A stretch of DNA of 64,000 nucleotides, from NCBI GenBank assembly GCA_963665665.1, contig OY762428.1, forward strand, positions 1,504,001 to 1,568,000. Direction: 5' to 3'. The position numbers and the translations under genes were made by a program. Positions 12,368-31,682 of this stretch are shown here, piece after piece. The DNA is from Candidatus Kapaibacterium sp. (GTDB lineage Bacteria > Bacteroidota > Ignavibacteria > Kapaibacteriales > UBA2268). The notes under the pieces were generated by a model that ran no database searches, was not told where the DNA came from, and saw only the letters and a program-made list of their open reading frames with translations. The stretch's first letter is position 1, and each line of letters starts with the position of its first letter.

Positions 12368-15033
<2,666 letters not shown>

Positions 15034-15074
15034 ATTCTTTCCTTCAAATTTAACAGGGTTTATGAGCCATGGAG

Positions 15075-15154
15075 TTTATTTTCCCTACGTCGGTACTAAC
15101 CGAATCAGGTTCAAAGGGTATGATCTCAGCCAAACAGGCACCCCTGCAATAAAA
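15075..15154 (-). promoter_or_regulatory. TPP riboswitch
   Basis: Minus strand GGGGTGCCTGTTTGGCTGAGATCATACCCTTTGAACCTGATTCGGTTAGTACCGACGTAGGGAA with P1 TTTATT/AATAAA, directly upstream of thiS. Confidence 0.95.
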
Positions 15155-15231
15155 TTAAATTTTTACAACAGCAAAATTATGAAAATTACTATTAATGTGC
15201 AAACCTGATCATTCCGGGCGAACATTGTATC

Positions 15232-15368
15232 GCACAAATTTGACAAATATATTCTTTGAGAATAATTTCTGATCAAAATGCAAAAACCCGCTACAGTTCT
15301 ACCTATAGCGGGTTTTTATTTTCGAGCCAACATGCGGACTTGAACCGCAGACCTGCTCATTACGAATG
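15232..15368 (-). repeat. att site distal to the tRNA: tRNA-Thr 3' fragment (15325-15368) plus duplicated terminator
   Basis: Matches 31739-31875; identity stops just past the anticodon loop. Confidence 0.92.
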
Positions 15369-15411
15369 TTGACGTTATTGCCGTATTTTAACAAATATAG
15401 GCGTTTTTGAT

Positions 15412-15456
15412 AAAGTTCTAATAATTGTTCTAATAACGATAACTTTCATTAGAACT
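15412..15456. other. Putative integrase arm-type binding sites
   Basis: GTTCTAATAA twice in tandem plus inverted TTAGAAC; the same tandem occurs at 31689-31716. Confidence 0.65.
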
Positions 15457-15529
15457 GCATGATAACAATTTTGGTTCAAATAATGATTTTTCATAAATTA
15501 TAAAGTAGACAACTATTCAAAATCAATCA

Positions 15530-16208
15530 TTGAGGTTCCAAATGAGTTACTATTTTACCGATCCTACAAATATGATAGAATACGAAATTTCATTAACATC
15601 ATTATCTAATTATCCAAGTTTGAGAATTCAGGATTTAGATAAAGATTTAAAACAATATTCTAATCCTGAAGAAAAAAATATTCTGGTACAAAAAGTACAA
15701 AAAAATATATGATGAAGCAAACATTATAAATGAGTCTATAATTGCGAACATGCCCAGTCAAATTGATGTCGAATTTTATAATTGCTTAATAAAACAAATT
15801 AAAGACATTATTAACTTAATAATTTATAAAATAGATGCCTTAGAAGAATATAGTTCATCAGTGAATAAACCAGCAAAGAATACAGGAAGCAAAGCTAAAG
15901 CCCCATTGAAGAATAGAGCTTATTTCATGTATCGTTTACTGATTTATATGAATATGAAAACAACCATACCTAAAACAAAAATTTACGATTTGATGGCTTA
16001 TGCTACCGGTACACATCCAAGTTATATGAAAGACGTTTTACTACCAATTATTAGATATTTTGAACAGATAAGCAGTGAAAACCCCTATGAAAAGAATCCA
16101 ATTCAATATTTAACCAGGGAAGATATTGAAGAAATGCTTGATTTACTCATCGGAATTGGTAAGGACGATATTGCTGAGTTTTTTAGAGATGATTTAGAAA
16201 TTATTTAA
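15530..16208 (+). pseudogene. Hypothetical gene split by a frameshift in an A7 run
   Basis: ORFs 15530-15712 and 15750-16208 join (KVQKIYDEANIINESIIANMPSQ) if one A is removed at 15699-15705. Confidence 0.5.
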
Positions 16209-16505
16209 AAAAAGAGAAAAAAGAATTAAAGTGAAGTACTCCAGTCATACTCCACGGAATTTATTTTTGTTCCCAGAATGAAATTGTAAAATAATTATCT
16301 GGGAATTTTTATGGGAATCCGAAGCAATCAAACTCAAAAATTTGATAAAGATCATCGTCAGATAGCCTTAATAAATCTTGCCCTCACATTCAGGATTTTT
16401 ACTGCTCCGACAAAGATCAAAATCTTGCTCCGTACGGGAGTTGTATATTTGTGTACATTCATTGAAGAATCGAATCAATTCACCTTTTGGGCGCATAAGT
16501 TAATT

Positions 16506-16546
16506 CCAGATTTGTCATTAGGATGATTTTCTAATGACAAATCTGG
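16506..16546. repeat. 16-bp perfect inverted repeat
   Basis: CCAGATTTGTCATTAG-N9-CTAATGACAAATCTGG. Confidence 0.85.
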
Positions 16547-16682
16547 GTTAATACCAATTTGCGAAACATTTATTACTTATTAAATGCACAATAGTATTTT
16601 TCTTGAAACATATTTTTCGCTTATCAAATTAGCTTTTCAAAATATGACAATCTTATTTCTTCAATAACTATAGGAAAACAAA

Positions 16683-16985
16683 ATGACCACACGGCATAAT
16701 TTGGAAGAAAATGGCTATCAATTGCCACATATCATTGATCTAACTCGTAAAGATGTACGTTCTATCAGGCAAAGAGCAGGATTTACACAAAAGGATATTG
16801 CAAGGATATGGGGTCTTAAATACGGCAATTCTTATTCCAGCTATGAAAACAACAAAAAACGTAAACATGAGCTGATCCCTATTAAACGTGTAAGACTATT
16901 GATCGAAGCGATTAACAACGAATATGGCGAAGGAATATTCGAAGTTATGTACAGAGAACTTCAGAAAAGGAAAAAGTCCGGTTAA
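16683..16985 (+). CDS. XRE/Cro-like HTH protein
   Basis: VRSIRQRAGFTQKDIARIWG...YSSYEN. Confidence 0.75.
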   Translation: MTTRHNLEENGYQLPHIIDLTRKDVRSIRQRAGFTQKDIARIWGLKYGNSYSSYENNKKRKHELIPIKRVRLLIEAINNEYGEGIFEVMYRELQKRKKSG

Positions 16986-17101
16986 TCCAGTTTTTTATAT
17001 CCGCTTCCGGGACAGCTGCTGAAAGGTGGCTGTCCCGGCTTTATAAAAATTGTTCTGCATAACTTTACGACTTTCAAATGATGATTGTATGCTTACCAAA
17101 A

Positions 17102-17128
17102 ACAGCCGGACTCATTGAATCCGGCTGT
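17102..17128. terminator. Intrinsic terminator hairpin between convergent genes; a second hairpin lies at 17007-17038
   Basis: ACAGCCGGA-CTCATTGAA-TCCGGCTGT. Confidence 0.6.
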
Positions 17129-17149
17129 GATATTGAAAAAGAATAATGT

Positions 17150-19480
17150 TTATTTATTTAGGATGAGCCTGCAAGATTTTGTGAAGCTCTCTGAGGAGAT
17201 TCTGAATATGTAAACACCGCTGTTAAGACTGCTGCCATCAACTTCGAAGTTATGGAAGCCATTACCAATATTACCTGAGTATATATTTTTGACTACTTTG
17301 CCGTTAATATCGCAAAGTTCTATTTCTACATTCATATCTTCCGGCAGGTTAACACCAATGTTTGTTTTGCTGTCAAACGGATTTGGATATGCCAGGCTGA
17401 GCATTACATCGCCCGGGGCAGCATCCTCGAATTCATATACTTTCCAGTCGCCGTAAGATATTTTTCCGGAGGCTGGAGCAGGATATGTCACTGTTCCGAG
17501 CCTGTAACGGTCGGAGAGGAAATCGTACACTTCCTGTCCGGTTGCCTGGTCAAAAGCGCTGTTGTAGAGAATTACGTCGCCGATAGCCCCGTTGAAAGTA
17601 CATGAGTAAGTTTCGCCTGTGTTGTAGTCGTGGAAACATGTTCTTGCAGCTCCGCCTACGCCTGTATGGTCTTCGCCGTCTTTCGATATACCTGCAAACG
17701 GAATCTGATCTGATTGCACAAGCATATCGCCACCCGACTTACTGACAGTAGCCTGAAAATCGGTTCCGTCATACTCAAGCTGGGCAATATAAACGGAATT
17801 GACATCGAGAGGATAAATGCTGTTATCCATCGGCGGATCATAAACCATGAATTTTTGCTGGAAGCGATTCCACATGCCGAATGCCAGCTTGCCGTTGATA
17901 ATATAGATATTATATCCCGAAAGCGGCCCGCCTGCTTCGAATATCACCTGCCTGCCATCGGAATAATATGGTTCCGGGTCGCCATCAGCATCAACAGAAC
18001 TGCCCGTTTTGAACACGACAATAAGCGTTTTCGGGCTGTTGTCAGGAGACCACTGGTCTTCAGTGGCAGTTGTAATTTCCGCGTTGTATGGGCTTGTCAT
18101 GATGTCTGAATTTGCGTAGCCGGATGAAGAATAATCATTGGCAAACTCAATTCCGGTTATACCGACGCCGAATTTATCTGCTACCTGCTTGGGCTGCTTA
18201 TTCTCATCAGTTTGTGTTGCATTTTCTTTCGGGAATGTAACATCCGTCCATACATCAAAGAAACTATCAGGTGCAATCGGGCTATCTTTTTCACCGTCAG
18301 CGTCTTTATCCTGGCCATTGAGCCAAAGGACGAGATCTGACATATTGGGACTATTAACTGTATTTACATTTAATAAAGCTAACGAATACTCTTTTCCGCC
18401 TGCAACTAATGCCCAGTTTGTTCTGCTATCTAATTGCACAAAGCTGCTTTTCGCAGTTTTATTTCCTATACCCAACTGTCCATAATTATTCGTGCCACAG
18501 GACCATAGTGTTCCGTCGTTTTTGATTGCCAGGGTGTGATAAGCGCCACATGATACCAACTTCCAGCTGGATTCGCTGCTTACATGCAAAGGGCTGCTTT
18601 GATTAGCTGTCGATCCTATGCCAAGCTGGCCAATACCATTGTAACCCCAGGCCCACATCGTCCCGTCGGTCTGGATTGCTAAAGTGTGATAATCGCCACA
18701 TGATACCAACTTCCAGTTTGTACCACTTCCTACCTGCACAGGGTTGCTTTGATCAGATGTTGATCCAATACCAAGTTCGCCATAATAATTATTGCCCCAG
18801 GCCCATAATGTCCCGTCGGTCTGAATTGCTAAAGTGTGATAAGCGCCACATGATACCGATTTCCAGTTTGTACTGCTTCCCACCTGTACAGGGCTACTTT
18901 GATTATCTGTCGATCCTATGCCAAGTTGTCCATAATTATTATAGCCCCAGGACCATAATGTCCCGTCGGTCTTGATTGCTAATGTGTGATATTTACCACA
19001 TGATACCGACTTCCAGTTTGTAGCGCTTCCCACTTTTACAGGGCTACTTTGATTAGTAGTACCTCCTATGCCCAGTAGTCCCAATCCATTACCATCGTAT
19101 CCCCAAGCCCACATCGTTCCGTCGGTCTTGATTGCTAAAGTGTGATAAGCGCCGCATGATACCGACTTCCAGTTTGTACCGCTTCCCACTTTTACAGGGC
19201 TACTTTGATTAGTAGTACTTCCTATGCCCAGCTGGCCATAACTGTTATAGCCCCAAGACCATAGAGTTCCATCGTCCTTTAGTGCCAGTGTGTGATAAGC
19301 CCCGCACGAAACCGAAGCAAACTCGCCCAAAACAGGTACAGGAGCTAATTTATCTGTTGTCGTACCGTCGCCTAACTGACCGTGCTCATTTTTTCCCCAG
19401 CCATACAATTCCTGTTGGGCAAGGGTGGTAAATGCGCTGATAAAAATTAAAATTACGATACTTAGTAATAACCTTTTCAT
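17150..19480 (-). CDS. Secreted RCC1-repeat beta-propeller + LamG-like domain + T9SS C-terminal domain
   Basis: Signal peptide from ATG 19480; repeated [29 protein letters not shown]; [17 protein letters not shown]...[8 protein letters not shown] CTD. Confidence 0.88.
   Translation of the reverse strand: [776 protein letters not shown]
18480..19310 (-). repeat. Near-identical intragenic tandem repeats (~156 bp, RCC1 blades)
   Basis: Recurrent GTGTGATAAGCGCCACATGATACC...TTCCAGTTTGTA units. Confidence 0.85.
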
Positions 19481-19940
19481 GTTAGCCTCATTATAAATAT
19501 TGAAGTAAATCGATAATAATATTAACCGGCAAAATGATATAAACTTTAAAATCCCTTGATTCAATTTTTCATGTTTTATAAAATATTTCTAAGCAAGTAT
19601 CCATAATATTTTTAACTTATGCAAGCATTTGCCTCCAAAATACCTACAACTACGTAGCAAAATCAGTATTTCATGGTATGCTGTTTCTACGTATTTATTG
19701 GTATATACAGCGATAAATTTTGGAGATATGGATATTTTAAAAAACAGATAATCTTTACAGGAAGACTAAGCTAAAATTCTTCTTCATCCCCTTGCCTTTC
19801 TCCAAAAAATTTGCGATATTGGAAATTGAATGCTCGCGGGGGAGTATTCCGGTTATGGCAGAGCGAAGGGTAGTAAAAATTTAAGTAAAGCAGCAGTCAT
19901 TTGACTGGTGTTTTTGTTGGTTTGAATTTATGAGGCTGAT

Positions 19941-20132
19941 ATGAATGTTCCGGATACAGATATTAATCTTGTCGAAGAATTCGGCCAGATCGCCTATAAG
20001 CTCTACAACCTGACTTACGATGAATGCAAAACCGTTGACCCGGAATTCGATGCCGCCCTTACCCTTGCAGGCCTCAACAAAGAAGACTACTAAAGAATGA
20101 GTATTGAAGAACAGGCGGAACTGGAGGAGTAA
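19941..20132 (+). pseudogene. C-terminal remnant of a type IIG/Eco57I-TaqI-like restriction-modification gene
   Basis: Hand translation ...EEFGQIAYKLYNLTYDECKTVDPEF...KEDY*RMSIEEQAELEE*, matching the IDxxVYxLYxLTxEE tail; internal TAA at 20091. Confidence 0.65.
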
Positions 20133-20190
20133 AAAAGTTGCAATATAAACTATATAATGAAAACAAAAGAAGTAATTCAAAGAAAGATAG

Positions 20191-21183
20191 ATGAAAAAAG
20201 AAAATAAACAATCGGCATTTATTTTGTTCAAAACAGAAGATCAAAAAATATCGGTAGATGTACGCTTTGAAGAAGAAACAGTATGGTTATCGCAAGAACA
20301 GATGGCTGCTTTGTTTGAACGGGACAGAAGCGTTATTACAAAGCATATTGCTAAAATATTTTTGGAAGGTGAATTGGAAGAAGAAAGCAATGTGCAATTT
20401 TTGCACATTGCAAATTCAGATAAACCGGTAAAGTTTTACAACCTGAATGTAATTATTTCTGTGGGTTACAGGGTGAAATCTCTCAGAGGTACCCAGTTCC
20501 GTATTTGGGCAACCCAGCGGCTGAACGAATATATCCGCAAAGGTTTTACAATGGATGATGAGCGTCTCAAAAATTTGGGCGGCGGCAGCTATTGGAAAGA
20601 ATTATTGCAGCGCATACGCGACATTCGCGCTTCCGAGAAAGTGTTTTACCGTCAGGTTCTGGATATTTACGCAACAAGTATTGATTACGATCCCAAAGCG
20701 GATGTTTCGATCACATTTTTTAAAAAAGTACAAAACAAAATTCATTATGCGGTACACGGCCAAACTGCAGCCGAAGTTATTTTTAACCGTGCCGATGCTG
20801 AAAAGGACTTTATGGGTTTGATGACATTCCCGGGCAATCGTCCCTATTTAAAAGATGTTGTTATAGCAAAAAAATATTTAGACGAAAAAGAACTTCGCTC
20901 TCTTGGTCAAATAGTATCGGGGTATTTGGATTTTGCCGAACGTCAGGCCGAACGTGAGCAAGCAATGACTATGAATGATTGGTCTGAACATCTGGACAGA
21001 ATTCTAATAATGAGCGGAGAAGAACTGTTGAAGGGCGCAGGTAAAATCAGTCATAACGAAGCTGTTGAAAAGGCTACAACAGAATATAGGAAGTATCAGC
21101 AAAAAACGCTCAGCGAAGTAGAAAAAAATTATTTGGATAGTTTGAAAATGTTAGAAACCCAATCCAATAAGAAAAAGAAATGA
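20191..21183 (+). CDS. rhuM: Virulence RhuM family DNA-binding protein
   Basis: ETVWLSQEQMAALF, YNLNVIISVGYRVKSLRGTQFRIWA, IRDIRASEKVFYRQV. Confidence 0.92.
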   Translation: MKKENKQSAFILFKTEDQKISVDVRFEEETVWLSQEQMAALFERDRSVITKHIAKIFLEGELEEESNVQFLHIANSDKPVKFYNLNVIISVGYRVKSLRGTQFRIWATQRLNEYIRKGFTMDDERLKNLGGGSYWKELLQRIRDIRASEKVFYRQVLDIYATSIDYDPKADVSITFFKKVQNKIHYAVHGQTAAEVIFNRADAEKDFMGLMTFPGNRPYLKDVVIAKKYLDEKELRSLGQIVSGYLDFAERQAEREQAMTMNDWSEHLDRILIMSGEELLKGAGKISHNEAVEKATTEYRKYQQKTLSEVEKNYLDSLKMLETQSNKKKK

Positions 21184-21276
21184 GTATTGAAGAACCGGCG
21201 GGGCTTCGGCTTTAGAATTTTCAATTCATAATTTGTAATTTATAAACTTATAGATTTTTAAACTTATTGAATTAGA

Positions 21277-21657
21277 ATGGCTAAGGAATATAAATACGAT
21301 CTGGAAGAAAGAACGGCTCTTTTCGGAGAGCAGGTAATTGCCTTTTCCCGGTCCATAAAATTGGATATAATTTCGAAGCCATTAGTATCCCAAATTGTAC
21401 GTTCAGCCACGAGTATTGGAGCAAACTATATGGAAGCCAACGGAGCTTCCTCAAAAAAGGATTTCAGAAATAAAATTTATATTGCCAAAAAGGAAGCGAA
21501 AGAAACACAACATTGGCTTCGTATGATAAGCAAAGCATGTCCCGAAAAAGCAGATGAAGCAAGAAAAATCTGGAAGGAATGTAAAGAAATAGTCTTGATA
21601 TTTCAATCAATTTGTAATAAAATAAACAGAGAAGAGAAAACTTCAGACGGTGTCTGA
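21277..21657 (+). CDS. Four-helix-bundle protein (23S rRNA IVP-like, TIGR02436)
   Basis: QIVRSATSIGANYMEA...DFRNKIYIAKKEAKETQHWL. Confidence 0.92.
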   Translation: MAKEYKYDLEERTALFGEQVIAFSRSIKLDIISKPLVSQIVRSATSIGANYMEANGASSKKDFRNKIYIAKKEAKETQHWLRMISKACPEKADEARKIWKECKEIVLIFQSICNKINREEKTSDGV

Positions 21658-21719
21658 AAAATTTCAATTCTCCTAAATTATTTAAAAATTAAGAACTAAA
21701 AATTAAAATTTGAGTAAAT

Positions 21720-22045
21720 ATGGAATTTAAGCAATTACCGGATTTGATAAATATTTTGCAGGAAACTGCTCAAAACAAGGCATTGCAAAGTGTGAACAGA
21801 ATGCTTACAATTCGCAACTAGCTTATCGGTTACTACATCGTCGAATATGAACAGAACGGCGAGGACAGGGCGGAATATGGAGCCCGGCTGCTTGAAAAAT
21901 TAGCTGTCGAACTAAAGAAGAAGAAACTAAAGGGAATGTCAAAAACTAATTTAAAGCAGTTCAGAACATTTTTCCTTATTTATCCGCAAATAGGTCAGAC
22001 AGTGTCTGACGAATTTAAAAAAATCAGCAGACAGCGTCTGATAAA
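21720..22045 (+). pseudogene. YhcG/DUF1016 N-terminal fragment with a nonsense codon
   Basis: MEFKQL...VNRMLTIRN*LIGYYIVEYEQNGEDRAEYG...YPQIGQTVSDEF; TAG at 21819 replaces the usual W; no nuclease C-terminus. Confidence 0.85.
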
Positions 22046-22112
22046 TAAACGGAGCTGGAGGTGTGCTAAAGTGAAAATTAAGACAATAAAATAAACTTAT
22101 AAGTTGATTATT

Positions 22113-22655
22113 ATGAAAATTATCCCTATTTTTGACAAGGATAATAAACTTCTTTCGTTTATATATGAAGAAAATGTTGTTTGTGAATTCGAACGTTTAT
22201 TTGATCTTTGGAATGATATTGAATACCTGGAGTCTTTTTTCCACGACAACGAATCGTATCTGAGAGACAGCTATTGGGATGGAAAATCGAAAGATTATTT
22301 AGTAAGAAAGACAAGAGAAATCGCAAATGATTTTGAAGACAAATTAATTGAATACGAGAATGTTGCGGATGACGACCAAATACGATTTTTGCAGGAATTA
22401 TTCGAGCCTCTCGGCCAAAGTGATTTTACAACCTAGGTTCTAACTAAAAGCAAAGCGAAAGAATTCTGGCTTCGAATTTATGCCTTGAAAGTAGATAGAT
22501 CTACATATATTATCACCGGAGGCGCTATAAAACTTACAAAACGGATGGAAGATCATGAAGCAACAAAATTAGAATTGAGAAAATTGGAAAAATGCAGAAA
22601 CTGGTTGTATAACCAAGGTATAACAGAAATTGAACAAATTGAAATTACTATATAG
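22113..22655 (+). pseudogene. RelE/HigB-like toxin interrupted by an in-frame TAG
   Basis: Frame continues after TAG 22434-22436: VLTKSKAKEFWLRIYALKVDRSTYIITGGAIKLTKRMEDH...; 180 codons in total. Confidence 0.75.
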
Positions 22656-22663
22656 AGCAGAAT

Positions 22664-23101
22664 ATGAAAAAAGATACTGATATATTGCAAAATTTGATCT
22701 CTGATACGCCTTCGAATTGGAAGGCTAAAGCCGAATACCGGAAAACCAATAAAGCCTGGCTGGATAAATCTGCCGATATAGCATTACTTATTCTTGAACA
22801 TTTACGGCAAAATAAAATCAGCCAGAAGCAGCTTGCTGAAATGATTGATGTAAGCCCGCAATTTGTTAACAAGTTAGTTAAGGGTAGCGAAAATCTGACG
22901 TTAAAAACAATATCAAATATCGAAAATGCTCTCGGGATAAGCTTGATCAAAGTTCAGAATGTAGCAGAGAGTATTGCTCTTGACAAAATTCCGATTCCTC
23001 CATCAATTGAATACTCGCAAGAGGTTTCTAATGAATTTGATTTTGCAAACCGTTTTGAAGAACTAAATGAAAATTGTCTAATTTATAGATTAGGCGCATG
23101 A
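22664..23101 (+). CDS. XRE-HTH antitoxin (HigA-like) with a C-terminal extension
   Basis: ISQKQLAEMIDVSPQFVNKLVKGSENLTLKTISNIENALG plus a ~50-aa tail. Confidence 0.85.
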   Translation: MKKDTDILQNLISDTPSNWKAKAEYRKTNKAWLDKSADIALLILEHLRQNKISQKQLAEMIDVSPQFVNKLVKGSENLTLKTISNIENALGISLIKVQNVAESIALDKIPIPPSIEYSQEVSNEFDFANRFEELNENCLIYRLGA

Positions 23102-23541
23102 TGAAAAGCAATGTGACGATTAAGTTTAAGCTTGCCGGAATAAAAACAGAACAATTTGCAATTATTGAAGAGAACTTTGATGACACGGCAAAAATTGAAA
23201 TTAATGTAGATTTCAAATTTGGCGGAAACGCAGTACAAAAGGGAGTCGGAGTTCTGGCTTCATTCACATATCTTAATCAAACAAAAGCATTTTTAAAAAT
23301 TGCAATTGGATGTCATTTCCAATTTGATGACGAAGCCTGGAGTAAAATTCAGTCCGATAAGCAGGAATTGATAATTCCGGTAAATATTATAAGGCACTTG
23401 GCTGTTTTAACTGTCGGAACTTGTCGCGGCGTTCTTCATGCCAAAACGGAAAATACAAAATTTAATCAGTTTTTCCTTCCAACAATTAACGTTGAAACTA
23501 TATTGAAGGATGATATTGTGATACAATTAGAGACTGTATAA
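23098..23541 (+). CDS. SecB-like chaperone
   Basis: 147 aa beta-beta-alpha pattern ending GTCRGVLHAKTENTKFNQFFLPTINV (SecB-like LPxIN); ATGA overlap with the antitoxin. Confidence 0.72.
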   Translation: MMKSNVTIKFKLAGIKTEQFAIIEENFDDTAKIEINVDFKFGGNAVQKGVGVLASFTYLNQTKAFLKIAIGCHFQFDDEAWSKIQSDKQELIIPVNIIRHLAVLTVGTCRGVLHAKTENTKFNQFFLPTINVETILKDDIVIQLETV

Positions 23542-23620
23542 CATCTTTATTCTACTTTAAGGTTGGTAAGCATAACGCAAAAATCTATACGCACTTTATC
23601 AGCTTATAAGGAAATTGGAA

Positions 23621-24127
23621 ATGGGTAAGAAAAAGCCGGAATTTATAAGAAACGTAGGGCAGCTAATACATTGGCACTATGCGAAACTAATAGCCGAGGC
23701 CCGATGTGGCAGCCGGGAAGAATATGCCCTTGTGATGCATGGATATAAAAAGCTGGAGTCGGGAGAAATCAGTATTTCGGGCTTGATCCGCGATAATAAA
23801 AAATTTCTTGAATTGGAAAAGTGCTGTGTGTACTGCCGATCAACAACCAATATTCAACTTGATCATATAATACCGTTAAGTAAAGGAGGCCCGGATACCT
23901 TTGATAATCTTATCTACGCCTGCCGGAATTGCAATATCTCAAAGGGTAACAAAAGCCTGCCAGAATGGTATGGCGATAATTACAGTAATGAAATTCCTGC
24001 AATCGTTTTCTCAAAATTTCTGAAGCTGATCTATCAAAAACATAAAGAAAACGACACCCTAAAGGAAACCGATTTTAATGGTGACGGAATTCTTGATTAC
24101 CGTGATTTAACAGATGTCTTTTGTTAA
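23621..24127 (+). CDS. HNH endonuclease
   Basis: CVYC...LDHIIPLSKGGPDTFDNLIYACRNCNISKG. Confidence 0.92.
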   Translation: MGKKKPEFIRNVGQLIHWHYAKLIAEARCGSREEYALVMHGYKKLESGEISISGLIRDNKKFLELEKCCVYCRSTTNIQLDHIIPLSKGGPDTFDNLIYACRNCNISKGNKSLPEWYGDNYSNEIPAIVFSKFLKLIYQKHKENDTLKETDFNGDGILDYRDLTDVFC

Positions 24128-24143
24128 AGGAAAAACAAAGTAT

Positions 24144-25013
24144 TTACCTATTACCCTCGTAAACCCTTCTGACCAAATCTTTTATAACTTCATTATTGTT
24201 CTTTATTTCATCTTTTGTAAGCCTGATTCGGTAGCTTCTGCCTCTAATATCATAATCAATAACTTCGAATCCGGCTTCATCAAAAATATTTTCAATTGAC
24301 TCATTTTTTTCAGATCTCAGGTGCAGTACGATATATTTCTTCCTTGGTTTAAGGGCAAAGATATTGTTCGATACTCCGTTCTTCCGAAGGCCAATATAGA
24401 ATTTATTATATTTCAGTTCGTACTGGTTATCAAATTCATGCAGGATTTCAAGAAGTTTGTCCGCAAGAAGAACTGTTTCCTTTGTTGCTTTGTTTTCCCA
24501 GTATGCCCTGTCAACCAGTTCCTGTTCAGACTCGTCTTCGTCCACAAGGCCAAGAGTAAGCTGATTAAGTATGGTAGTAAAAACGAGGGATATTTTGTCC
24601 TCCAACCTAATCGCATTCAGCTGTATGGCAATTACTGGAATAAATCCGTTGAACAGACTGATCACGTTGAAAAAACGGCTGGTAATATCCTCGGCAATAA
24701 TAACAGCGCAATGTTCATATTGCGGATAGCGTTTTCTTTCGATGTCCCAATACTCAAGAGTTCTGATAATATGGCTTTCGTCAGTTTTTCCAAGTTGGAG
24801 TTCTACTTCATACCTTTGGTAAGTATCAGGATCCTGTAGTAACAAATCCAATCTGCCGGAATTTGGCTGGCTCCTTTCAATATCTTTAAGAATCAAATCT
24901 CCAAGGCCAAGAATCGATGGATCTTCGGCAATTCTTTCCTGTACCCATTTCTCGTTTATATTCGGCTGATCTTTTAGTGAAATCTTTACAACTTTAACAT
25001 AATTTGTTGTCAT
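24144..25013 (-). CDS. NucS-like PD-(D/E)XK endonuclease with a DUF5655-like C-terminal domain
   Basis: E..VQE..I...P..LG, GRLDLL, YEVELQLG, HIIRTLEYW; C-terminal LKYNKFYIGL. Confidence 0.75.
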   Translation of the reverse strand: MTTNYVKVVKISLKDQPNINEKWVQERIAEDPSILGLGDLILKDIERSQPNSGRLDLLLQDPDTYQRYEVELQLGKTDESHIIRTLEYWDIERKRYPQYEHCAVIIAEDITSRFFNVISLFNGFIPVIAIQLNAIRLEDKISLVFTTILNQLTLGLVDEDESEQELVDRAYWENKATKETVLLADKLLEILHEFDNQYELKYNKFYIGLRKNGVSNNIFALKPRKKYIVLHLRSEKNESIENIFDEAGFEVIDYDIRGRSYRIRLTKDEIKNNNEVIKDLVRRVYEGNR

Positions 25014-25313
25014 TTTTTACGATCCCCTAAATTTCAAACAGCTATTATGGAATTAATCTTTAATATTACAAGATTATTCTATAATTTTATAGCATAAACC
25101 AAGCCAAAACTGAATTGGGAATTGTATATTGGCGGTATTTTACAATATTAGCCCAGCCTAATAAAATACCGGGGTATAAAACCATGGGGTTGCAAATAAA
25201 AACCCCTTAGAAGCGATTTATGTAGGCCAGTCTTGAAAAGCAAGGACTGGTGAGGGTTTTGGGGTATGCTTCAGGAAATATTATGAAATTTATAGGAATT
25301 TGCAATATTCTAT

Positions 25314-25541
25314 TTACTTTTCCGGTTTAAATGAAAGCCCTTTATAAATAAATTCCCCTTTTTGGCCTGAAAATATTCTATCATGTTTTATTGAATTATC
25401 GAAGATGTTTTGTGGAATGTTATCGAAGGCCTGGCAGGATTTATCTGAGATGAAATATTCACAACTTAAACATTGGGAGATACAGTTTGAAAAATCATCT
25501 GTTGCCCATCTTTCTTGTATTGTCATTGGTTTCTTCTTCAT
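25314..25541 (-). CDS. Small Cys/His-rich phage-type protein
   Basis: CLSC...CQAFDNIP...KH...GQKGEFIY. Confidence 0.6.
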   Translation of the reverse strand: MKKKPMTIQERWATDDFSNCISQCLSCEYFISDKSCQAFDNIPQNIFDNSIKHDRIFSGQKGEFIYKGLSFKPEK

Positions 25542-25545
25542 TGTT

Positions 25546-25920
25546 TTACCTACCACACTCTATCCCGAATAACTGGTATTCGAGGCAGTCGTGTTTCTTA
25601 TTAGATTTTGATTTCTTCCTCGGTTTTGTTGTTTTGCTGCCTTTTGGATAACATCTGTTGAATTTATCAAAGATTTCTGCTGCTCGAGGATTTTTGCGGC
25701 ATCCTCTTTCTATTGTTCCGTAGCGTATCTGGTAGCCTATCACTTCGCAATTGTTGTCCACTATTGGACTGATAACTACCTGCTGAGGCGACAGTTCCGG
25801 AGCAATCTCTATTTCCGGAATATAGTCGATATTCATTCTTTCAACGGTCTGGCACATTTTGGAAAGTTTAACTTTCGATTCAATTTTATCAACAACCTTC
25901 AAAAAAGCCATCTGTTTCAA
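25546..25920 (-). CDS. Hypothetical protein
   Basis: 124-aa ORF with a basic C-terminus, abutting the next gene; start uncertain. Confidence 0.5.
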   Translation of the reverse strand: MKQMAFLKVVDKIESKVKLSKMCQTVERMNIDYIPEIEIAPELSPQQVVISPIVDNNCEVIGYQIRYGTIERGCRKNPRAAEIFDKFNRCYPKGSKTTKPRKKSKSNKKHDCLEYQLFGIECGR

Positions 25921-26080
25921 CAGTTGACAGTTCAGGAGTTATTATTTACGGCTATGTAGAACACCTATCAGTTAATGAATTGAGAATTACTTTCAATTAT
26001 CCTTTCGCTGGGTTGGCGGTTTGTAATTGAAACAAAAAGCAGGGCCGGAACCCTGCTAATTATAATTATGTTGTTAATAT

Positions 26081-29000
26081 TTACTTAGTAAATATAAATT
26101 TCTCAATGATGCTTGTATTGCCATCAGATATTCTGATAAAATACATTCCGGTAGATTGATCCTGCATATCAAATTCAATTTTATTTCTTCCGAAGTTTAG
26201 ACAATTACTGAGATTCATCAGCTTATTCCCAAACATATCAATAATATCGAGAGTATAATTGCCAGGTTGGTAAATCTCAAGTTCTACTGTGCCCTGATAC
26301 TGTACCGGGTTAGGATAAACCGCCAGAATCCTGAATTCCTTGTTGTCTATTTCTTCGACGGAATTAGCTTCGGACGGGACCGCGCTGACTACTTTTGAAA
26401 AGCTGGATTCCTCGAAATCCTCGTTAATCGACGTGTACATGTAATAGTAGCGTTTGTAGGCTTCCACGCCTTTGTCGGTATAAGCGAGGTCGGAAACTAC
26501 GGTCCCGTTCACCCGAATAGTGTCGGTGTAAGTCGTGTCCGTTTTATTCTCAAAGCGATAAACGTTATATCCTATAGACGTTTCGCCGGGCTCGGCTTCC
26601 CATTCCAGATCAACCTGTCCCTTGCCGCCTTCGGCAGTGAATATGGTGGATGCAGCCCCGGCAGCATCGATAACGAAGGAGAAGCGGCTGTCCTCGATAG
26701 GAATTTTGAAGTATTCATCATCCTGGGCATCAGCAACGCGGATGTAGTTAATCCCGTCGCCGGTATATTTATTGAAATAGTAAGTGGCCGTCCAGATTTT
26801 TCCTTCTGCATCCCAGCTGCCGCTCGTTTTCACCGCGTGCTGCGTGAACGGTTCCCGCACGCCGAAGGACAGGAAGGGCTCTACGCTCTTATCCATTTTC
26901 CTGTTAAAGTACACTTCGAATGTATGCTCTCCCTCGCCGAATGCGTCAATATTCCCCGCTTCGGGGTACTTACCGTCAACCAACACTTTCCAGACTATGC
27001 CGTGGGCGGAGTCGGAGGGTTGGGTTAGGAAGGGTTCGTAGACTACTAATCTATAATCAAAATTATCCCAGAAATCATAAATCATATCATCAATTTTTTT
27101 CTTGTCGGAGGTTCCCCAATAGTTATAATTATTTATGCATGTATCTTTTCCTTTAAAGCTACTAACTGAGTACGGGTTGTTATTGACAAAACTATTGTTC
27201 TTTACCACACTTCCTTTATATATGTTGTGCATCGCACCACCAGCAATTGAATTTTCTGAATTATTCCAAAAATTATTATTAGTTATTACAGATGATAAGT
27301 CACGGTCATGATTGGTTATGTTGTTAATTTGGTTATGAATAAAATTATTTCTGTCAATTGTCGCATTTTCGATAATATTGCTATTTGTTGATGTTCGTCC
27401 AATATTCTGCTTTGATAATATTGAATTTCTTATTTCCAAATATCCGCCAAAAGAATAAAACCTAATATTTTCAAGAATACAATAATTAATAATGCATTTA
27501 TTACGGATTTCAATATGCTTATCATGATCAAAGGGATAAAATCCCATGAATTTAATAAGATGATCTTTATTACCTATCGCAATAAGCTCTCCTTCAACTC
27601 TTAAATAAATATTATCATAAATTTCTATTTCGGTTCCAGACTCAATAGTCAAAATTGCACTTTCTAGCAACAGTGTATTCCCAACAATCAAATATAAATT
27701 ATCCTTAGTCCATGTTTGGTCCTCAGATATAACTCCGCTGATTTCAATTCCTTTTTCAGTATTAACAATAAGCTCTTTTTTGCTGGTGTCCGCCGAACCT
27801 TCTTCCCAGGCAAGAGCCTCGAACACAATGTCCCTGTTGTGAACTATATTATTCGATATTTTGACTTGAAAAGGGTTGTCGAAATTTTGACGGGAAGCGT
27901 ATGCTCCGAGCGCTCCGAGGTTTACAAGACTATTATAAATCGTTGCGACGGATTTGTCTTCGTTGTCGGCAAGCTGAAGTTTCATCCAAACCGTTTTTGA
28001 ATTTCCTCCGGCATTACGAATCTTGACGTTGAATTCAATGTCTTCGCCGGCGTCCGCTCGGTAATCGCCGTCTCCTTTCAGCGTGTCGACAAGTATAAAC
28101 GAAGCGACCTGGAGAACCGGCTTTGGCGAAAAAGCCAGAGTTTTCTCAAGATCGAAGACGTTAGTACCGTTTGCGCCTATTATTCTCGCCCAAATCATTT
28201 CCTGGGATTCGTCTTTTAAATCTTTGTAAATCGATAAAGCGCCGGCAATAACAGGCGCCGCCATCGACGTGCCCTGCAAACTTTTATACCTGTTATTGGG
28301 ATACGCGCTCATTATCTCCGTACCGGGAGCGACAACTTCATAATTAAGCAAATTTGGGTATCCGCTATTAATCGGTCCGTCGATGTCGGTATTCGTAAAG
28401 TCCGCTAATTCGTTTTGATTATCGCTCGCCTTTACGCCAAGAACATATTGAAAAGCGGCCGGGTAAAAAGGCTCGCAACCGACGCCCGGTCCGATACATA
28501 TAGCGTCATTACCCGCAGCCGCAACCAAAACCGCTTTCGAATATGCGTAAGCAAGCGCGTCTTCCATAGCCTGGGAGCGGGCATAAGAGCCGAAGCTCAT
28601 ATTTATGACGGTCGCGCCGTTGTCCGCCGCCCAGCGAATGCCCTGGGCTATGGTCGCCGCGTCTCCGCGGCCCGAGCTCTGCAATACCTTTACGGGCAAT
28701 ATTTTTGCGTTGGGGTTTACGCCGCAGATTCCGATTCCGTTGTTTCCGACCGCGGCGGCTATTCCCGCTACGTGCGTACCGTGACCGTTGTCGTCGTTTG
28801 GGTCGTTGTCGTTGTTAATAAAGTCTTTTCCCTGCAGGCAATTCGCTTTTAAATCGGGATGCTCCGTATCGACGCCGGTGTCGAGAATACCGATAATCTG
28901 GTTGCTGGTTCCGCCGGTTTGCTCCCATACTTTATCGATTTTGCAGCGTTCGATATACCATTGGTCGCCGTAAAGCTCGTCGTTGGGGTCGGCGCAAGCT

Positions 29001-29787: not shown

Positions 29788-30075
29788 ATGGCAAACAAAC
29801 GAAGAAATTACAGTTCAAAATTCAAAATGCAGGTAGCCCTGGAGGCAGTCCAAGAGAGAAAAACAATAACCGAGCTGGCATCGGAGTACGGGGTTCATCC
29901 AAACCAGATAAGCATGTGGAAAAAGCATTTAAAAGAAAGTGAAAAGGAAGTATTTGAAAACAAGCGTGGGCCAGGGAAGAATAAAAAAGAAAAAGACGAA
30001 TCAGTATTATATGAAGAAATAGGCCAGCTAAAAATTGAATTAGACTGGTTAAAAAAAAAATTGGGACGTGAGTAA
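29788..30075 (+). CDS. IS3 transposase OrfA
   Basis: RRNYSSKFKMQVAL...ELASEYGVHPNQISMWKK; A10 run at 30051-30060. Confidence 0.92.
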   Translation: MANKRRNYSSKFKMQVALEAVQERKTITELASEYGVHPNQISMWKKHLKESEKEVFENKRGPGKNKKEKDESVLYEEIGQLKIELDWLKKKLGRE

Positions 30076-30913
30076 AAAAGAGCGTAGAAATATGGTAGAT
30101 GCTGATAATAAAGAAATTAGCATAAGCCGGCAGTGCGAGCTTTTGGGTATTAGCAGGAGCTGTTATTATTACAAACCCAAGGGTGAAAGTGAAGCAAATA
30201 TTCTATATATGAAGCTGATCAAAGAACAATTCGCGATTACTCCATTTTATGGAGCCAGAAAAATGACAGCACACTTACGTTCTTTGGGATACCATGTTAA
30301 CTATAAACGAATCAGGCGATTAATGAAATTATTGGGACTTCGGGCAATATATCCCCAACCGGACACGAGCAAACCGAACAAGGAGCACAAAATTTATCCA
30401 TACCTGTTGAGGGATATGAAAATAAGTCGTCCGGATCAGGTTTGGAGCCTGGATATAACATATATTCCGATGCGTAAAGGATTTATGTATCTTATAGCAA
30501 TTATAGATGTTTATAGCAGGTATATCGTCGACTGGGAATTATCGAATAACCTTGAGAAGGAGTTCTGCATAGATACAATAAAAAGGTCTTTGAAAACCAG
30601 GAAACCGGAAATAACAAACACGGATCAGGGCAGTCAGTTCACGAGCAATGATTTTGTGAAAACGATTCTGGATGCTGATGTTAAGGTAAGCATGGACGGC
30701 AAGGGCCGCGCCTTGGACAATGTTTACATAGAACGCTTCTGGCGGAGCTTTAAATACGAAGACCTGTATCTGAAGTCTTACGAAGACGGAAAAGAGCTCT
30801 ATGGCGGTATAAAGGCTTATGTCGATTGGTATAACAACACGAGGCCGCACGCAGGAATTGAATACCAGATTCCGGCTGAAAAATATATGAACGAACAGCG
30901 GTTCGTTAATTGA
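30068..30913 (+). CDS. IS3 transposase OrfB (DDE)
   Basis: WSLDITY, NTDQGSQFTS, DNVYIERFWRSFKYE. Confidence 0.95.
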   Translation: MSKKERRNMVDADNKEISISRQCELLGISRSCYYYKPKGESEANILYMKLIKEQFAITPFYGARKMTAHLRSLGYHVNYKRIRRLMKLLGLRAIYPQPDTSKPNKEHKIYPYLLRDMKISRPDQVWSLDITYIPMRKGFMYLIAIIDVYSRYIVDWELSNNLEKEFCIDTIKRSLKTRKPEITNTDQGSQFTSNDFVKTILDADVKVSMDGKGRALDNVYIERFWRSFKYEDLYLKSYEDGKELYGGIKAYVDWYNNTRPHAGIEYQIPAEKYMNEQRFVN

Positions 30914-31289
30914 AAACTTTGTTGGAAAAGTGAAAAAATGCAATCCGGTAAGCAATTGATAAAAAAAGAAATAGAAAGGAGAGTGAAAGTTATCCACAAT
31001 TTCCAGGTTGTTAACAAAAAGAAAAAAAAGTAGCAAAAAAAAGAAAAATTAATATTATTACATATTTTTTTCTTATTTTATTAGAGAAGAAGTATAGATT
31101 AATAAACACCATAAACTATACTTTTATTTGTCTAAGCAATAGGGAGCATTTCAGTGAAGCAAGTTTCCATCATATAAATTACTCTGCTAAACAGTTTAAT
31201 TTTTTAACCATATTATTCATCAATAGATAAAATTACTTCATAAAATATTTATTAGGATATCCAATAAAATTAACAAAAAACGATTTTAA

Positions 31290-31682
31290 TTTTTTCCAAT
31301 TACACAACAGGTAAAAGAATTATTATTGGAGCAACTCAAATTTGCAAAAAGTCGTTTAGGAACTGACAAGAAGGAAAAAGTCTTTCGTTGGGAAGCCAGT
31401 TCCTCCAGCCGTCTGACGAGAAGATTCAACACTATCTGTAACGAAGCCGGCTGCCGAATCAACAACCAATCATTTCACCGCCTGAGAAATACTTTCAGCA
31501 ATAAAATATTGGATTCAGATATGACCGCTGTTGAAATGCGGCGCGCTATGAGGCATAGCAATATTCAGACAACAATCGAAAAGTATGAAAAAAGAAAGAA
31601 AGAGAAGATGGGGGAAAAAATCCAAAGTGTTGTTACGATTGATAAATCATGGAAGAATTCTCAAAAACAAAATAATAAATGA
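31290..31682 (+). pseudogene. Tyrosine integrase, C-terminal remnant
   Basis: FPITQQVKELLLEQ...SFHRLRNTF...MRHSNIQTTIEKY (HxxR, H, Y); in-frame stop directly upstream; first catalytic R and N-terminal domains missing. Confidence 0.8.

Follow-up and report, generated by a model that had tools for sequence, protein, structure and literature searches.

In a stretch of 64,000 nucleotides from Candidatus Kapaibacterium sp. (contig OY762428.1, positions 1,504,001 to 1,568,000 of assembly GCA_963665665.1, hereafter called the window), the phage defense candidate gene rhuM is flanked on either side by a copy of the 3' end, here called the tail, from a restriction-modification (R-M) gene of type IIG. 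Corresponding tail-cargo-tail arrangements with other genes between the tails are found in relatives of the same bacterial family. What is observed is the repeat, its identity as R-M coding sequence, the return of the pattern with different cargo and a single case in which presence and absence can be compared. On balance, these observations favor a reading in which the tail end of Eco57I/TaqI_C genes is a recurrent entry point for single genes in this family, used through target-duplicating insertion or an equivalent recombination. The features of the window concerned are the following:

19941-20132, plus strand: what is left of the 3' end (tail) of a type IIG R-M gene of the Eco57I/TaqI_C family; its 62 codons are interrupted in frame by TAA (20091-20093), and it was identified by homology to the very C-terminal end of family members.
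20096-20118, plus strand: direct repeat copy 1, encoding RMSIEEQA inside the tail.
20191-21183, plus strand: rhuM, intact, 330 amino acids (aa) (PF13310, E value 3e-105; PADLOC PDC-S05, E value 1.5e-166).
21179-21215, plus strand: direct repeat copy 2 (21179-21201) and the remainder of another tail end (MSIEEPAGLRL before the stop), overlapping the rhuM stop.
22050-22061, plus strand: possible third tail-end remnant, CGGAGCTGGAGG, with a TAA 6 nucleotides (nt) later and an 11/12 match to 20116-20127.

The two copies of the repeat, AATGAGTATTGAAGAACAGGCGG at 20096-20118 and AATGAGTATTGAAGAACCGGCGG at 21179-21201, are identical at 22 of 23 positions and lie 1083 bp apart from start to start. With up to 3 mismatches allowed, the 23-mer has exactly two matches in the window, and the same two sites are its sole matches in the 5,458,198-base single-contig genome; none of 100 dinucleotide shuffles contains two or more matches. 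The pair around rhuM from which the initial annotation had started is thereby confirmed. The rhuM stop codon TGA (21181-21183) falls inside copy 2, and rhuM is the sole gene of the 1083-bp unit, which contains no transposase, integrase or phage genes. The second tail end behind rhuM is 12 codons long, and the stop codons stand at an equal codon position in both window copies. Seven successive codons share their synonymous choice in the two copies, and relatives spell the same peptide differently. Directly past the 23-mer, the identity of the junction sequences drops from 22/23 to 6/15. The third partial copy claimed by the initial annotation does exist as an 11/12 match, but an equal match is found at 54530, with 0.13 matches expected per window; the 12-mer is a possible remnant that is weak and suggestive by position only, and it is not counted as evidence.

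Copy 1 shares its frame with the 50-aa open reading frame (ORF) at 19941-20093 and lies past the in-frame TAA that ends this ORF. The window tail reads GLNKEDY, TAA, RMSIEEQAELEE, TAA, with AELEE directly before the last stop (20130-20132). Since it aligns with the tail of a relative, G005, which has GAG in place of the first TAA, copy 1 is in-frame tail coding sequence behind a nonsense codon (G-numbers denote the genomes compared, G000 being the own genome). The 50-aa ORF matches no Pfam or NCBIfam family. A six-frame search with it through 254 genomes of the order gives matches in 30 genomes, and 22 of the 38 matches end open frames of 585 to 1382 aa, the other 16 lying in frames of at most 227 aa. 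The tail aligns with the C termini of 1100- to 1380-aa ORFs in relatives; among relatives of full length, those with 1129, 1322 and 1207 aa end in EDYENMSIEQLA, ADYESMSVESLGELGEE and EEFDSMSFEELGKRLSCVY, respectively. According to Pfam, a 1126-aa long protein contains Eco57I (PF07669) and TaqI_C (PF12950) and is located behind an SNF2 helicase, and a 1254-aa protein contains DUF7149, DUF7814, Eco57I and TaqI_C. PADLOC assigns the 1126-aa protein to REase_MTase_IIG. The common C terminus in the tail alignment A2 is EIDxLVYKLYDLTYDEVKIVDPEF, and the window-like subtype ends in LSPEDYENMSIEQLA in G108, ADYESMSVESLGELGEE in G020, EEFDSMSFEELGKRLSCVY in G078 and LSKEDYERMGVEELGNN in G005. The repeat is thus a piece of a type IIG R-M gene 3' end, as the initial annotation had proposed, since full-length Eco57I/TaqI_C relatives carry the tail. 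The window keeps the last 62 codons without an Eco57I methylase or TaqI_C domain in Pfam scans, and the R-M body is absent; the ORF 19941-20132 is an R-M remnant, not a gene.

A profile built on 36 tails and searched in 130 genomes of the family gives 289 matches in 100 genomes. Among the 150 matches listed, 54 lie in frames shorter than 200 aa (hand count, contig ends included), and 14 loci in 12 genomes among the matches listed show two or three same-strand tails within 4.5 kb. Ten of these 14 loci, together with loci from G102 and G070, were fetched and inspected, and are listed in the direction in which the R-M gene is read. In all 12 loci, tails on one strand were verified to enclose an insert, with the cargo families named by Pfam and PADLOC scans and the coordinates taken from the A2-profile tail matches:

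G144:C8, 51244/52360: repeat of 100 nt, 96% identity, around AbiD/Abi_2.
G030:C1, 1864696/1863675: repeat of 111 nt, 98%, around DUF2971.
G061:C6: repeat of 70 nt, 94%, around a Y1_Tnp gene, IS200-like and accompanied by a hairpin.
G072:C18: repeat of 83 nt, 98%, around ~230 nt with REP-like hairpins, followed by a Y1_Tnp gene.
G108:C42: repeat of 59 nt, 95%, around rhuM.
G070:C62: repeat of 86 nt, 99%, around a nuclease-like ORF that continues in frame as tail 2.
G034:C72: repeat of 83 nt, 84%, around a 90-aa KilA-N-like ORF (weak Pfam match).
G030:C1, 1684772/1683361: repeat of 77 nt, 87%, around a pentapeptide protein gene.
G102:C1: repeat of 73 nt, 84%, around rhuM.
G112:C37: three tails, two of which enclose DUF3800.
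G018:C22: two tails, with a Y1_Tnp-like gene and yhcG, then rhuM.
G065:C25: two tails, with SLFN_AlbA_2 and DUF5131.

The cargo in relatives is without a transposase (AbiD, DUF2971, DUF3800, YhcG and others), apart from the Y1_Tnp genes in G061 and G018, and consists throughout of rhuM or other accessory genes, never of a restriction and modification gene pair. The repeats stop at the R-M stop codon or a few nucleotides from it, and at some loci include the ATG of the next gene. Between genomes, the tails share a mean column identity of 39% (A2), whereas the two copies within a locus are nearly identical, which points to local duplication or recent recombination. Two classes of junctions are found: copies identical through the stop (G144 and G030) and copies that are alike in the proximal part and diverge at the distal end (G070, G034 and the window). 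The latter class is what a crossover between different alleles would give. The expected recurrence at the ends of Eco57I-like genes and between variable downstream genes is thus seen for tail copies in relatives. As for the proposed search with the 23-mer, the exact 23-mer is confined to this locus, and it is the tail sequence that recurs.

A parallel comes from G005, where one contig carries, up to its end, a tail, KilA-N with full-length yhcG, a second tail and rhuM, and a second contig, whose adjacency to the first is not established, carries the 3' end of rhuM, a tail and a yhcG fragment. This arrangement parallels that of the window. Two further loci of the own genome show a tail pair whose first tail is joined to a repeated noncoding element described below; in one, the repeat has 75 nt (91%) and encloses rhuM together with two unknown genes, and in the other it has 71 nt (90%) and encloses yhcG. 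A separate feature of G070:C62 (L049, 1605-2240) is a 211-codon frame in which the nuclease-like ORF (motifs DVDIDV and LVIEIKT, no Pfam match) is in frame with tail copy 2; the inserted gene thus ends in the R-M enzyme's own last 30 residues. IS200-like Y1 (HUH) transposase genes and REP-like GC-rich hairpins stand at or beside the type IIG tails in G061:C6, G072:C18 and G018:C22, and in G072 the hairpin-bearing 155 nt are duplicated together with the tail.

Gain or loss of a gene at the tail is seen within one genus. In G137 and G141, the R-M tail overlaps the start of a 101-aa gene (GAGTATGGTGG). G133, from the same genus, carries a 1149-nt DUF3800 gene exactly at the overlap of tail stop and start codon; this gene takes over the ATG and ends in EKYGR and a stop, followed by a homologue of the 101-aa gene. 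A fixed gene order in relatives, which the initial annotation had named as evidence against its reading, is therefore not what is found, because G133 and G137, two species of one genus, differ by gain or loss at the tail.

The preferred reading of the tail as an entry point can be put as a sequence of steps. The entry region would comprise the last 20 to 37 codons of an Eco57I/TaqI_C gene and continue through the stop to the start codon of the next gene. A single accessory or defense gene would enter the tail of the R-M gene, after which one tail copy would close the R-M gene and the second would sit behind the newcomer, ahead of the former downstream gene. Insertion with target duplication could provide the route, as could recombination between the resident tail and a tail on incoming DNA (Campbell type or double crossover), and a dedicated recombinase would not be required. 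Recombination between the two tail copies could delete or move the unit again. The window itself is an old and decayed case, as judged from the replaced R-M body, the nonsense codon in the tail, the 12-codon second tail of a different allele and the broken neighbors. With an identity of 23 bp, its rhuM unit is probably no longer mobile.

The initial annotation knew of no described mechanism of this kind, but a closely related phenomenon is on record. The available portions of a study by Furuta, Abe & Kobayashi (2010, PMC2853133) describe it for types I to IV of R-M systems under the name "insertion with long target duplication". Their cases, like those described here, involve a unit without transposase or integrase between direct repeats of more than 30 bp and up to ~400 bp; the 59- to 111-nt repeats measured in nine relative loci exceed this 30-bp criterion. 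As far as the accessible text goes, the repeat is single copy in the genome with the empty site, gene fusion at the junction occurs, some repeats overlap the 3' end of a neighboring gene, and the mechanism of the long duplication is left without explanation (PMC2853133). The cases differ in that the unit inserted there is the R-M system itself and the targets are diverse (PMC2853133), whereas here the last codons of the R-M gene are the recurrent target and single accessory or defense genes are the cargo. RhuM, DUF1016/YhcG, Fic/DOC and GIY-YIG genes have been reported inside or beside R-M operons (PMC3710099, PMC9881135), with RhuM and DUF1016 enriched beside R-M specificity genes (Anantharaman et al. 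2013, PMC3710099; Milman et al. 2023, PMC9881135), and PrrC in EcoprrI is an example of an embedded accessory gene (PMC12707154). In the portions available, these sources describe the association of such passengers, not their entry route or tail duplications (PMC3710099, PMC9881135, PMC12707154). A literature search, with most subscription journals and supplements outside its reach, found no prior description of tail duplication around embedded defense genes closer than that of Furuta et al. Long-repeat insertion without mobility genes is known, as are RhuM and DUF1016 as passengers of R-M operons; the present cases are set apart by the accessory-gene cargo and by the R-M gene's own last codons as the repeated target.

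Two further systems invite comparison. Integron cassettes are promoterless single genes arranged in series behind a fixed upstream segment, can be lost and carry a repeat at the end of each unit; integrons require IntI, attI and folded attC sites. The arrangement described here resembles them in its single genes in series, each unit with a terminal repeat, and differs in that the repeat is the protein-coding sequence of a neighboring gene, variable in length, and that IntI, attI and attC were not found. No integron integrase lies within 14000-28000 of the window, the nearest candidate being a 118-aa Phage_integrase fragment at 31326-31682 (Pfam), and a repeat scan of the window and the junction sequences shows no attC-type inverted repeats at the unit borders. 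The integron-like reading of the initial annotation is unsupported as regards machinery, with no recombinase in or beside the units, no hairpins at their borders and repeat lengths anywhere between 23 and 111 nt, and its addition of one unit at a time is not borne out either. Its reading is therefore supported in part, for gain and loss at the tail repeats and not for the mechanism. The orphan C-terminal modules of cdiA and rhs genes are displaced 3' ends in tandem downstream of the main gene, with a conserved stretch that allows recombination. They are alternative toxin tips with immunity genes, in contrast to the invariant extreme end with unrelated genes between the copies seen here.

Upstream of the window tail, a repeated element takes the place of the R-M body:

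19790-19940, plus strand: noncoding repeated element of ~130 to 150 nt with a terminator-like hairpin at its end, followed by GAGGCTGATATG.

An R-M pseudogene body upstream of the tail ORF was considered and is ruled out, as the upstream 130 to 150 nt are this element. The own genome contains ~9 copies with 79 to 90% identity, the others lying near 4448074(+), 1891133(-), 1414412(+), 738651(-), 4028822(+), 4029983(+), 3323841(+) and 4314641(+). In 129 other genomes of the family, nothing beyond scraps of 27 to 28 nt was found. The element ends with a hairpin and a T-run (fold z-score of -2.69), some copies run on to GAGGCTGATATG, and no Rfam family matches it. Four copies are joined to a type IIG tail ORF at one identical point; four others form the right end of a repeated block, of which two copies have 6.6 kb in common at 91.5%, including an integrase, HTH_31 and a 128-aa gene, and the remaining two have 1.1 to 2.2 kb in common. 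Three copies of the element, one of them outside the four block-end copies, are located directly upstream of type I R-M operons. At 4028.8-4030.2 kb of the own genome, two element copies 1161 nt apart enclose a DUF6804 gene and another small gene, an ORF (called as 268 aa) with which the first copy overlaps; they stand directly upstream of a type I operon of hsdM, yhcG, an SLFN remnant and hsdS. The element may be a promoter or leader or the end of an island.

The gene content named by the initial annotation, rhuM and a yhcG fragment, is upheld by Pfam and NCBIfam. RhuM is a full-length match to PF13310, with 351 bits against a curated cutoff of 33.7, and a representative of PDC-S05 (RhuM domain) protected E. 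coli from T7, T5 and T4, according to the available part of the source (PMC12881386); the window gene is a candidate for a single-gene phage defense. Four features follow behind the rhuM unit:

21277-21657, plus strand: gene of a four-helix-bundle protein (23S rRNA IVS protein family; PF05635, E value 1.7e-17; TIGR02436, E value 2.7e-23).
21720-22094, plus strand: N-terminal fragment of yhcG (DUF1016), truncated, with an in-frame TAG at 21819-21821 (DUF1016_N, E value 1.7e-13).
22104-22655, plus strand: ORF with an in-frame TAG at 22434-22436, for which Pfam, NCBIfam and PADLOC scans found no family.
22664-23101, plus strand: XRE/HTH_3 gene, identified by family scans.

The DUF1016_N match spans profile positions 28-92 of 137, compared to 371 to 384 aa for full-length yhcG in relatives. 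The two in-frame TAGs lie 615 nt apart; that of the yhcG fragment stands between RN and LIGYY, and that of the ORF 22104-22655 between FTT and VLTKSKAKEFWLRIYAL. The genes that bear them are also truncated or without family matches, and both frames are probably pseudogenes. Behind the XRE gene, within 23098-24127, a 147-aa ORF matches the PADLOC candidate PDC-M64C (E value 1.4e-10), and a gene for a 170-aa HNH protein at 23615-24127 shows weak matches to PtuB and to IscB/Cas9 HNH domains. Farther on, at 29788-31682, an IS3-family transposase pair (HTH_Tnp_1 and rve) precedes the 118-aa C-terminal tyrosine integrase fragment mentioned above, and together they may mark the far edge of the island holding the array. 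On the other side, the minus-strand gene 17150-19564 encodes a secreted protein of 804 aa that has a T9SS sorting domain, and its 150-nt tandem periodicity at 18396-19315 corresponds to RCC1 repeats. An Rfam scan over 19000-23000 gives nothing above threshold; a subthreshold SprX match inside rhuM was taken as chance.

At an E value of at most 1e-40, rhuM is found in 51 of the 130 family genomes, with seven copies in the own genome. A specific tie of rhuM to type IIG tails was considered and rejected (3/30 loci). Flanking repeats are more widespread around this gene: when the 450-nt flanks are compared with each other, the highest-scoring direct match reaches at least 28 bits in 13 of the 27 rhuM loci scored (30 minus three with short flanks or a contig end), compared to 2 of 27 for the inverted control and to a background of 3 of 150 random ORFs of 250 to 450 aa from one genome only, G000. 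Some of them are junction modules, such as a 19-nt repeat in G107 that spans the hsdS stop to ATGGCA, followed by an hsdR-like ORF (named by eye), and a 54-nt repeat in G031 that is the tail of the upstream gene. A further example is a 51-nt perfect repeat flanking rhuM in G147. The figure of 13/27 overstates the true target duplications, since other flanking repeats are palindromic or low-complexity intergenic sequence.

The second and third tail pieces might instead be the last remnants of further complete tandem type IIG genes, with nothing inserted at all. Such decay would fit defense islands, which gain and lose R-M genes, and the commonness of orphan tails noted above (54 among the 150 matches listed); the window sequence past the 23-mer differs between the copies as two alleles would, and the tails of G070 and G034 are of different subtypes. 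It is nonetheless rather unlikely, as the fresh cases are 94 to 99% identical over 59 to 111 nt and their likeness ends at a common place near the stop. In the loci examined, at most ~111 nt of R-M sequence is found ahead of tail 2, and the 3' end of the cargo abuts this tail; random loss would be expected to spare pieces from the 5' part and the middle no less often than 3' ends. The seven consecutive window codons with identical synonymous choice speak against decay as well. A further explanation would see no trace of recombination in the repeats and treat the similarity as retained or convergent, the tail end being the region where translation of the following gene is initiated. Within the tail, the VEG codons (GTGGAGGG) do set a GGAGG a few nucleotides ahead of the next ATG, and downstream genes begin within or just past the tail stop. 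Selection for a ribosome-binding site, however, leaves unexplained both the 94 to 99% identity over 59 to 111 nt, which extends 30 codons upstream, and the identical synonymous choices in the window 23-mer, 12 codons before the stop, which makes this explanation highly improbable. The GGAGG ahead of the ATG may explain why a tail copy is kept before the displaced downstream gene.

Two other explanations accept an insertion and assign it to an enzyme. Homing-like spread, in which nucleases of the cargo or its neighbors (YhcG with its PD-(D/E)xK fold, HNH, GIY-YIG or the Y1 HUH transposase) cut unoccupied tails and repair copies the occupied form, is unlikely. Candidates for such nucleases are present: inserts and neighbors include YhcG, the G070 nuclease-like ORF (no family match) and Y1_Tnp with REP-like hairpins in G061, G072 and G018, the window has HNH at 23615-24127, and a GIY-YIG gene stands beside the locus at 1891 kb. 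Double-strand breakage behind long target duplication is also proposed in the available text of Furuta et al. (PMC2853133). The RhuM, AbiD, DUF3800, DUF2971 and pentapeptide cargo, on the other hand, shows no nuclease signature in the scans, and classical homing produces no target duplication. A site-specific cassette system with a trans-acting integrase that uses the tail as its attachment site, in the manner of integron cassettes, would account for the tyrosine integrases that stand at the distal ends of those repeated islands in which the 130-nt element occurs, for the one integrase directly upstream of element and tail at 4448 kb and for the orphan tails of G141 and G133, whose neighboring islands have, to judge from the sequences, an integrase as well as primase-like and excisionase-like genes. 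Long repeats are carried by islands that integrate at the 3' ends of genes, as the accessible part of the same paper reports (PMC2853133). This system is very unlikely, as most tail-cargo-tail units have no recombinase inside or adjoining, the repeats, of 23 to 111 nt, differ in length and in the place of their left border, the unit borders show no inverted repeat or attC-like hairpin, and the nearest integrase in the window is the fragment at 31326-31682, 9 kb off.

Several results weigh against the tail as a recurrent entry point and set its strength. The window repeat, with 23 nt, is shorter than the 30-bp criterion of Furuta et al. (2010), and the window alone shows no simple duplication, because the 15 nt past the repeat are unrelated (6/15). 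The repeat of the G133/G137 pair is very short, ~5 to 10 nt. No empty site of the window rhuM was found in the contigs of four sequencing runs or in scans of genome and metagenome contigs. The contigs of the four runs, which cannot reveal rare forms, likewise show no joint that skips the 1083 bp, the excision variant sought by the initial annotation: the run of the source sample gives one contig identical over 19930-23500, the run of the same species label nothing matching the window locus, and the two metagenome runs short pieces at 85 to 99%. Outside the genome, the exact 23-mer has one match in metagenome contigs, in a high-GC, unrelated sequence without tail or rhuM, which is a chance match, and a degenerate codon-level scan of genome contigs, whose pattern was too loose (at least 120 loci), gave no in-frame upstream tail motif in any of the 80 loci fetched. 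A type IIG tail lies within 600 nt of 3 of 30 rhuM loci (best per genome), and the closest rhuM orthologues (79%, in G090 and G143) are without one. The genomes compared are species representatives, not strains. The mechanism may be RecA-type recombination, break repair or the action of another enzyme.

Under the preferred reading of the tail as an entry point, the window alone is of modest value, since it is a decayed example, and the weight lies on the family. There, entry at the tail would leave the R-M gene intact and place the newcomer where downstream genes normally start. The "long target duplication" known for R-M systems would be extended to their passengers, and an annotation rule would follow, with orphan LVYxLYxLT...VEG tails as marks of past insertions. 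A more far-reaching version, doubtful at present, is a recombinase-free cassette system that shuttles single-gene phage defenses between R-M operons with the junction module as a portable address. This module would consist of the last codons of the upstream gene and the start of the next, and a copy of it would travel with each cargo. If so, it would let the cargo enter a related R-M gene without breaking it, supply translational coupling and permit exit, and the system would be the functional counterpart of an integron, with coding sequence and host recombination as its building blocks. The surplus of flanking repeats around rhuM (13/27 compared to 3/150) would then extend the principle beyond type IIG tails. 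Insertion at the ends of type IIG R-M genes is probably a recurrent and under-described way for defense genes to enter these loci, and such an entry point would offer a testable route by which defense islands are built and reshuffled.

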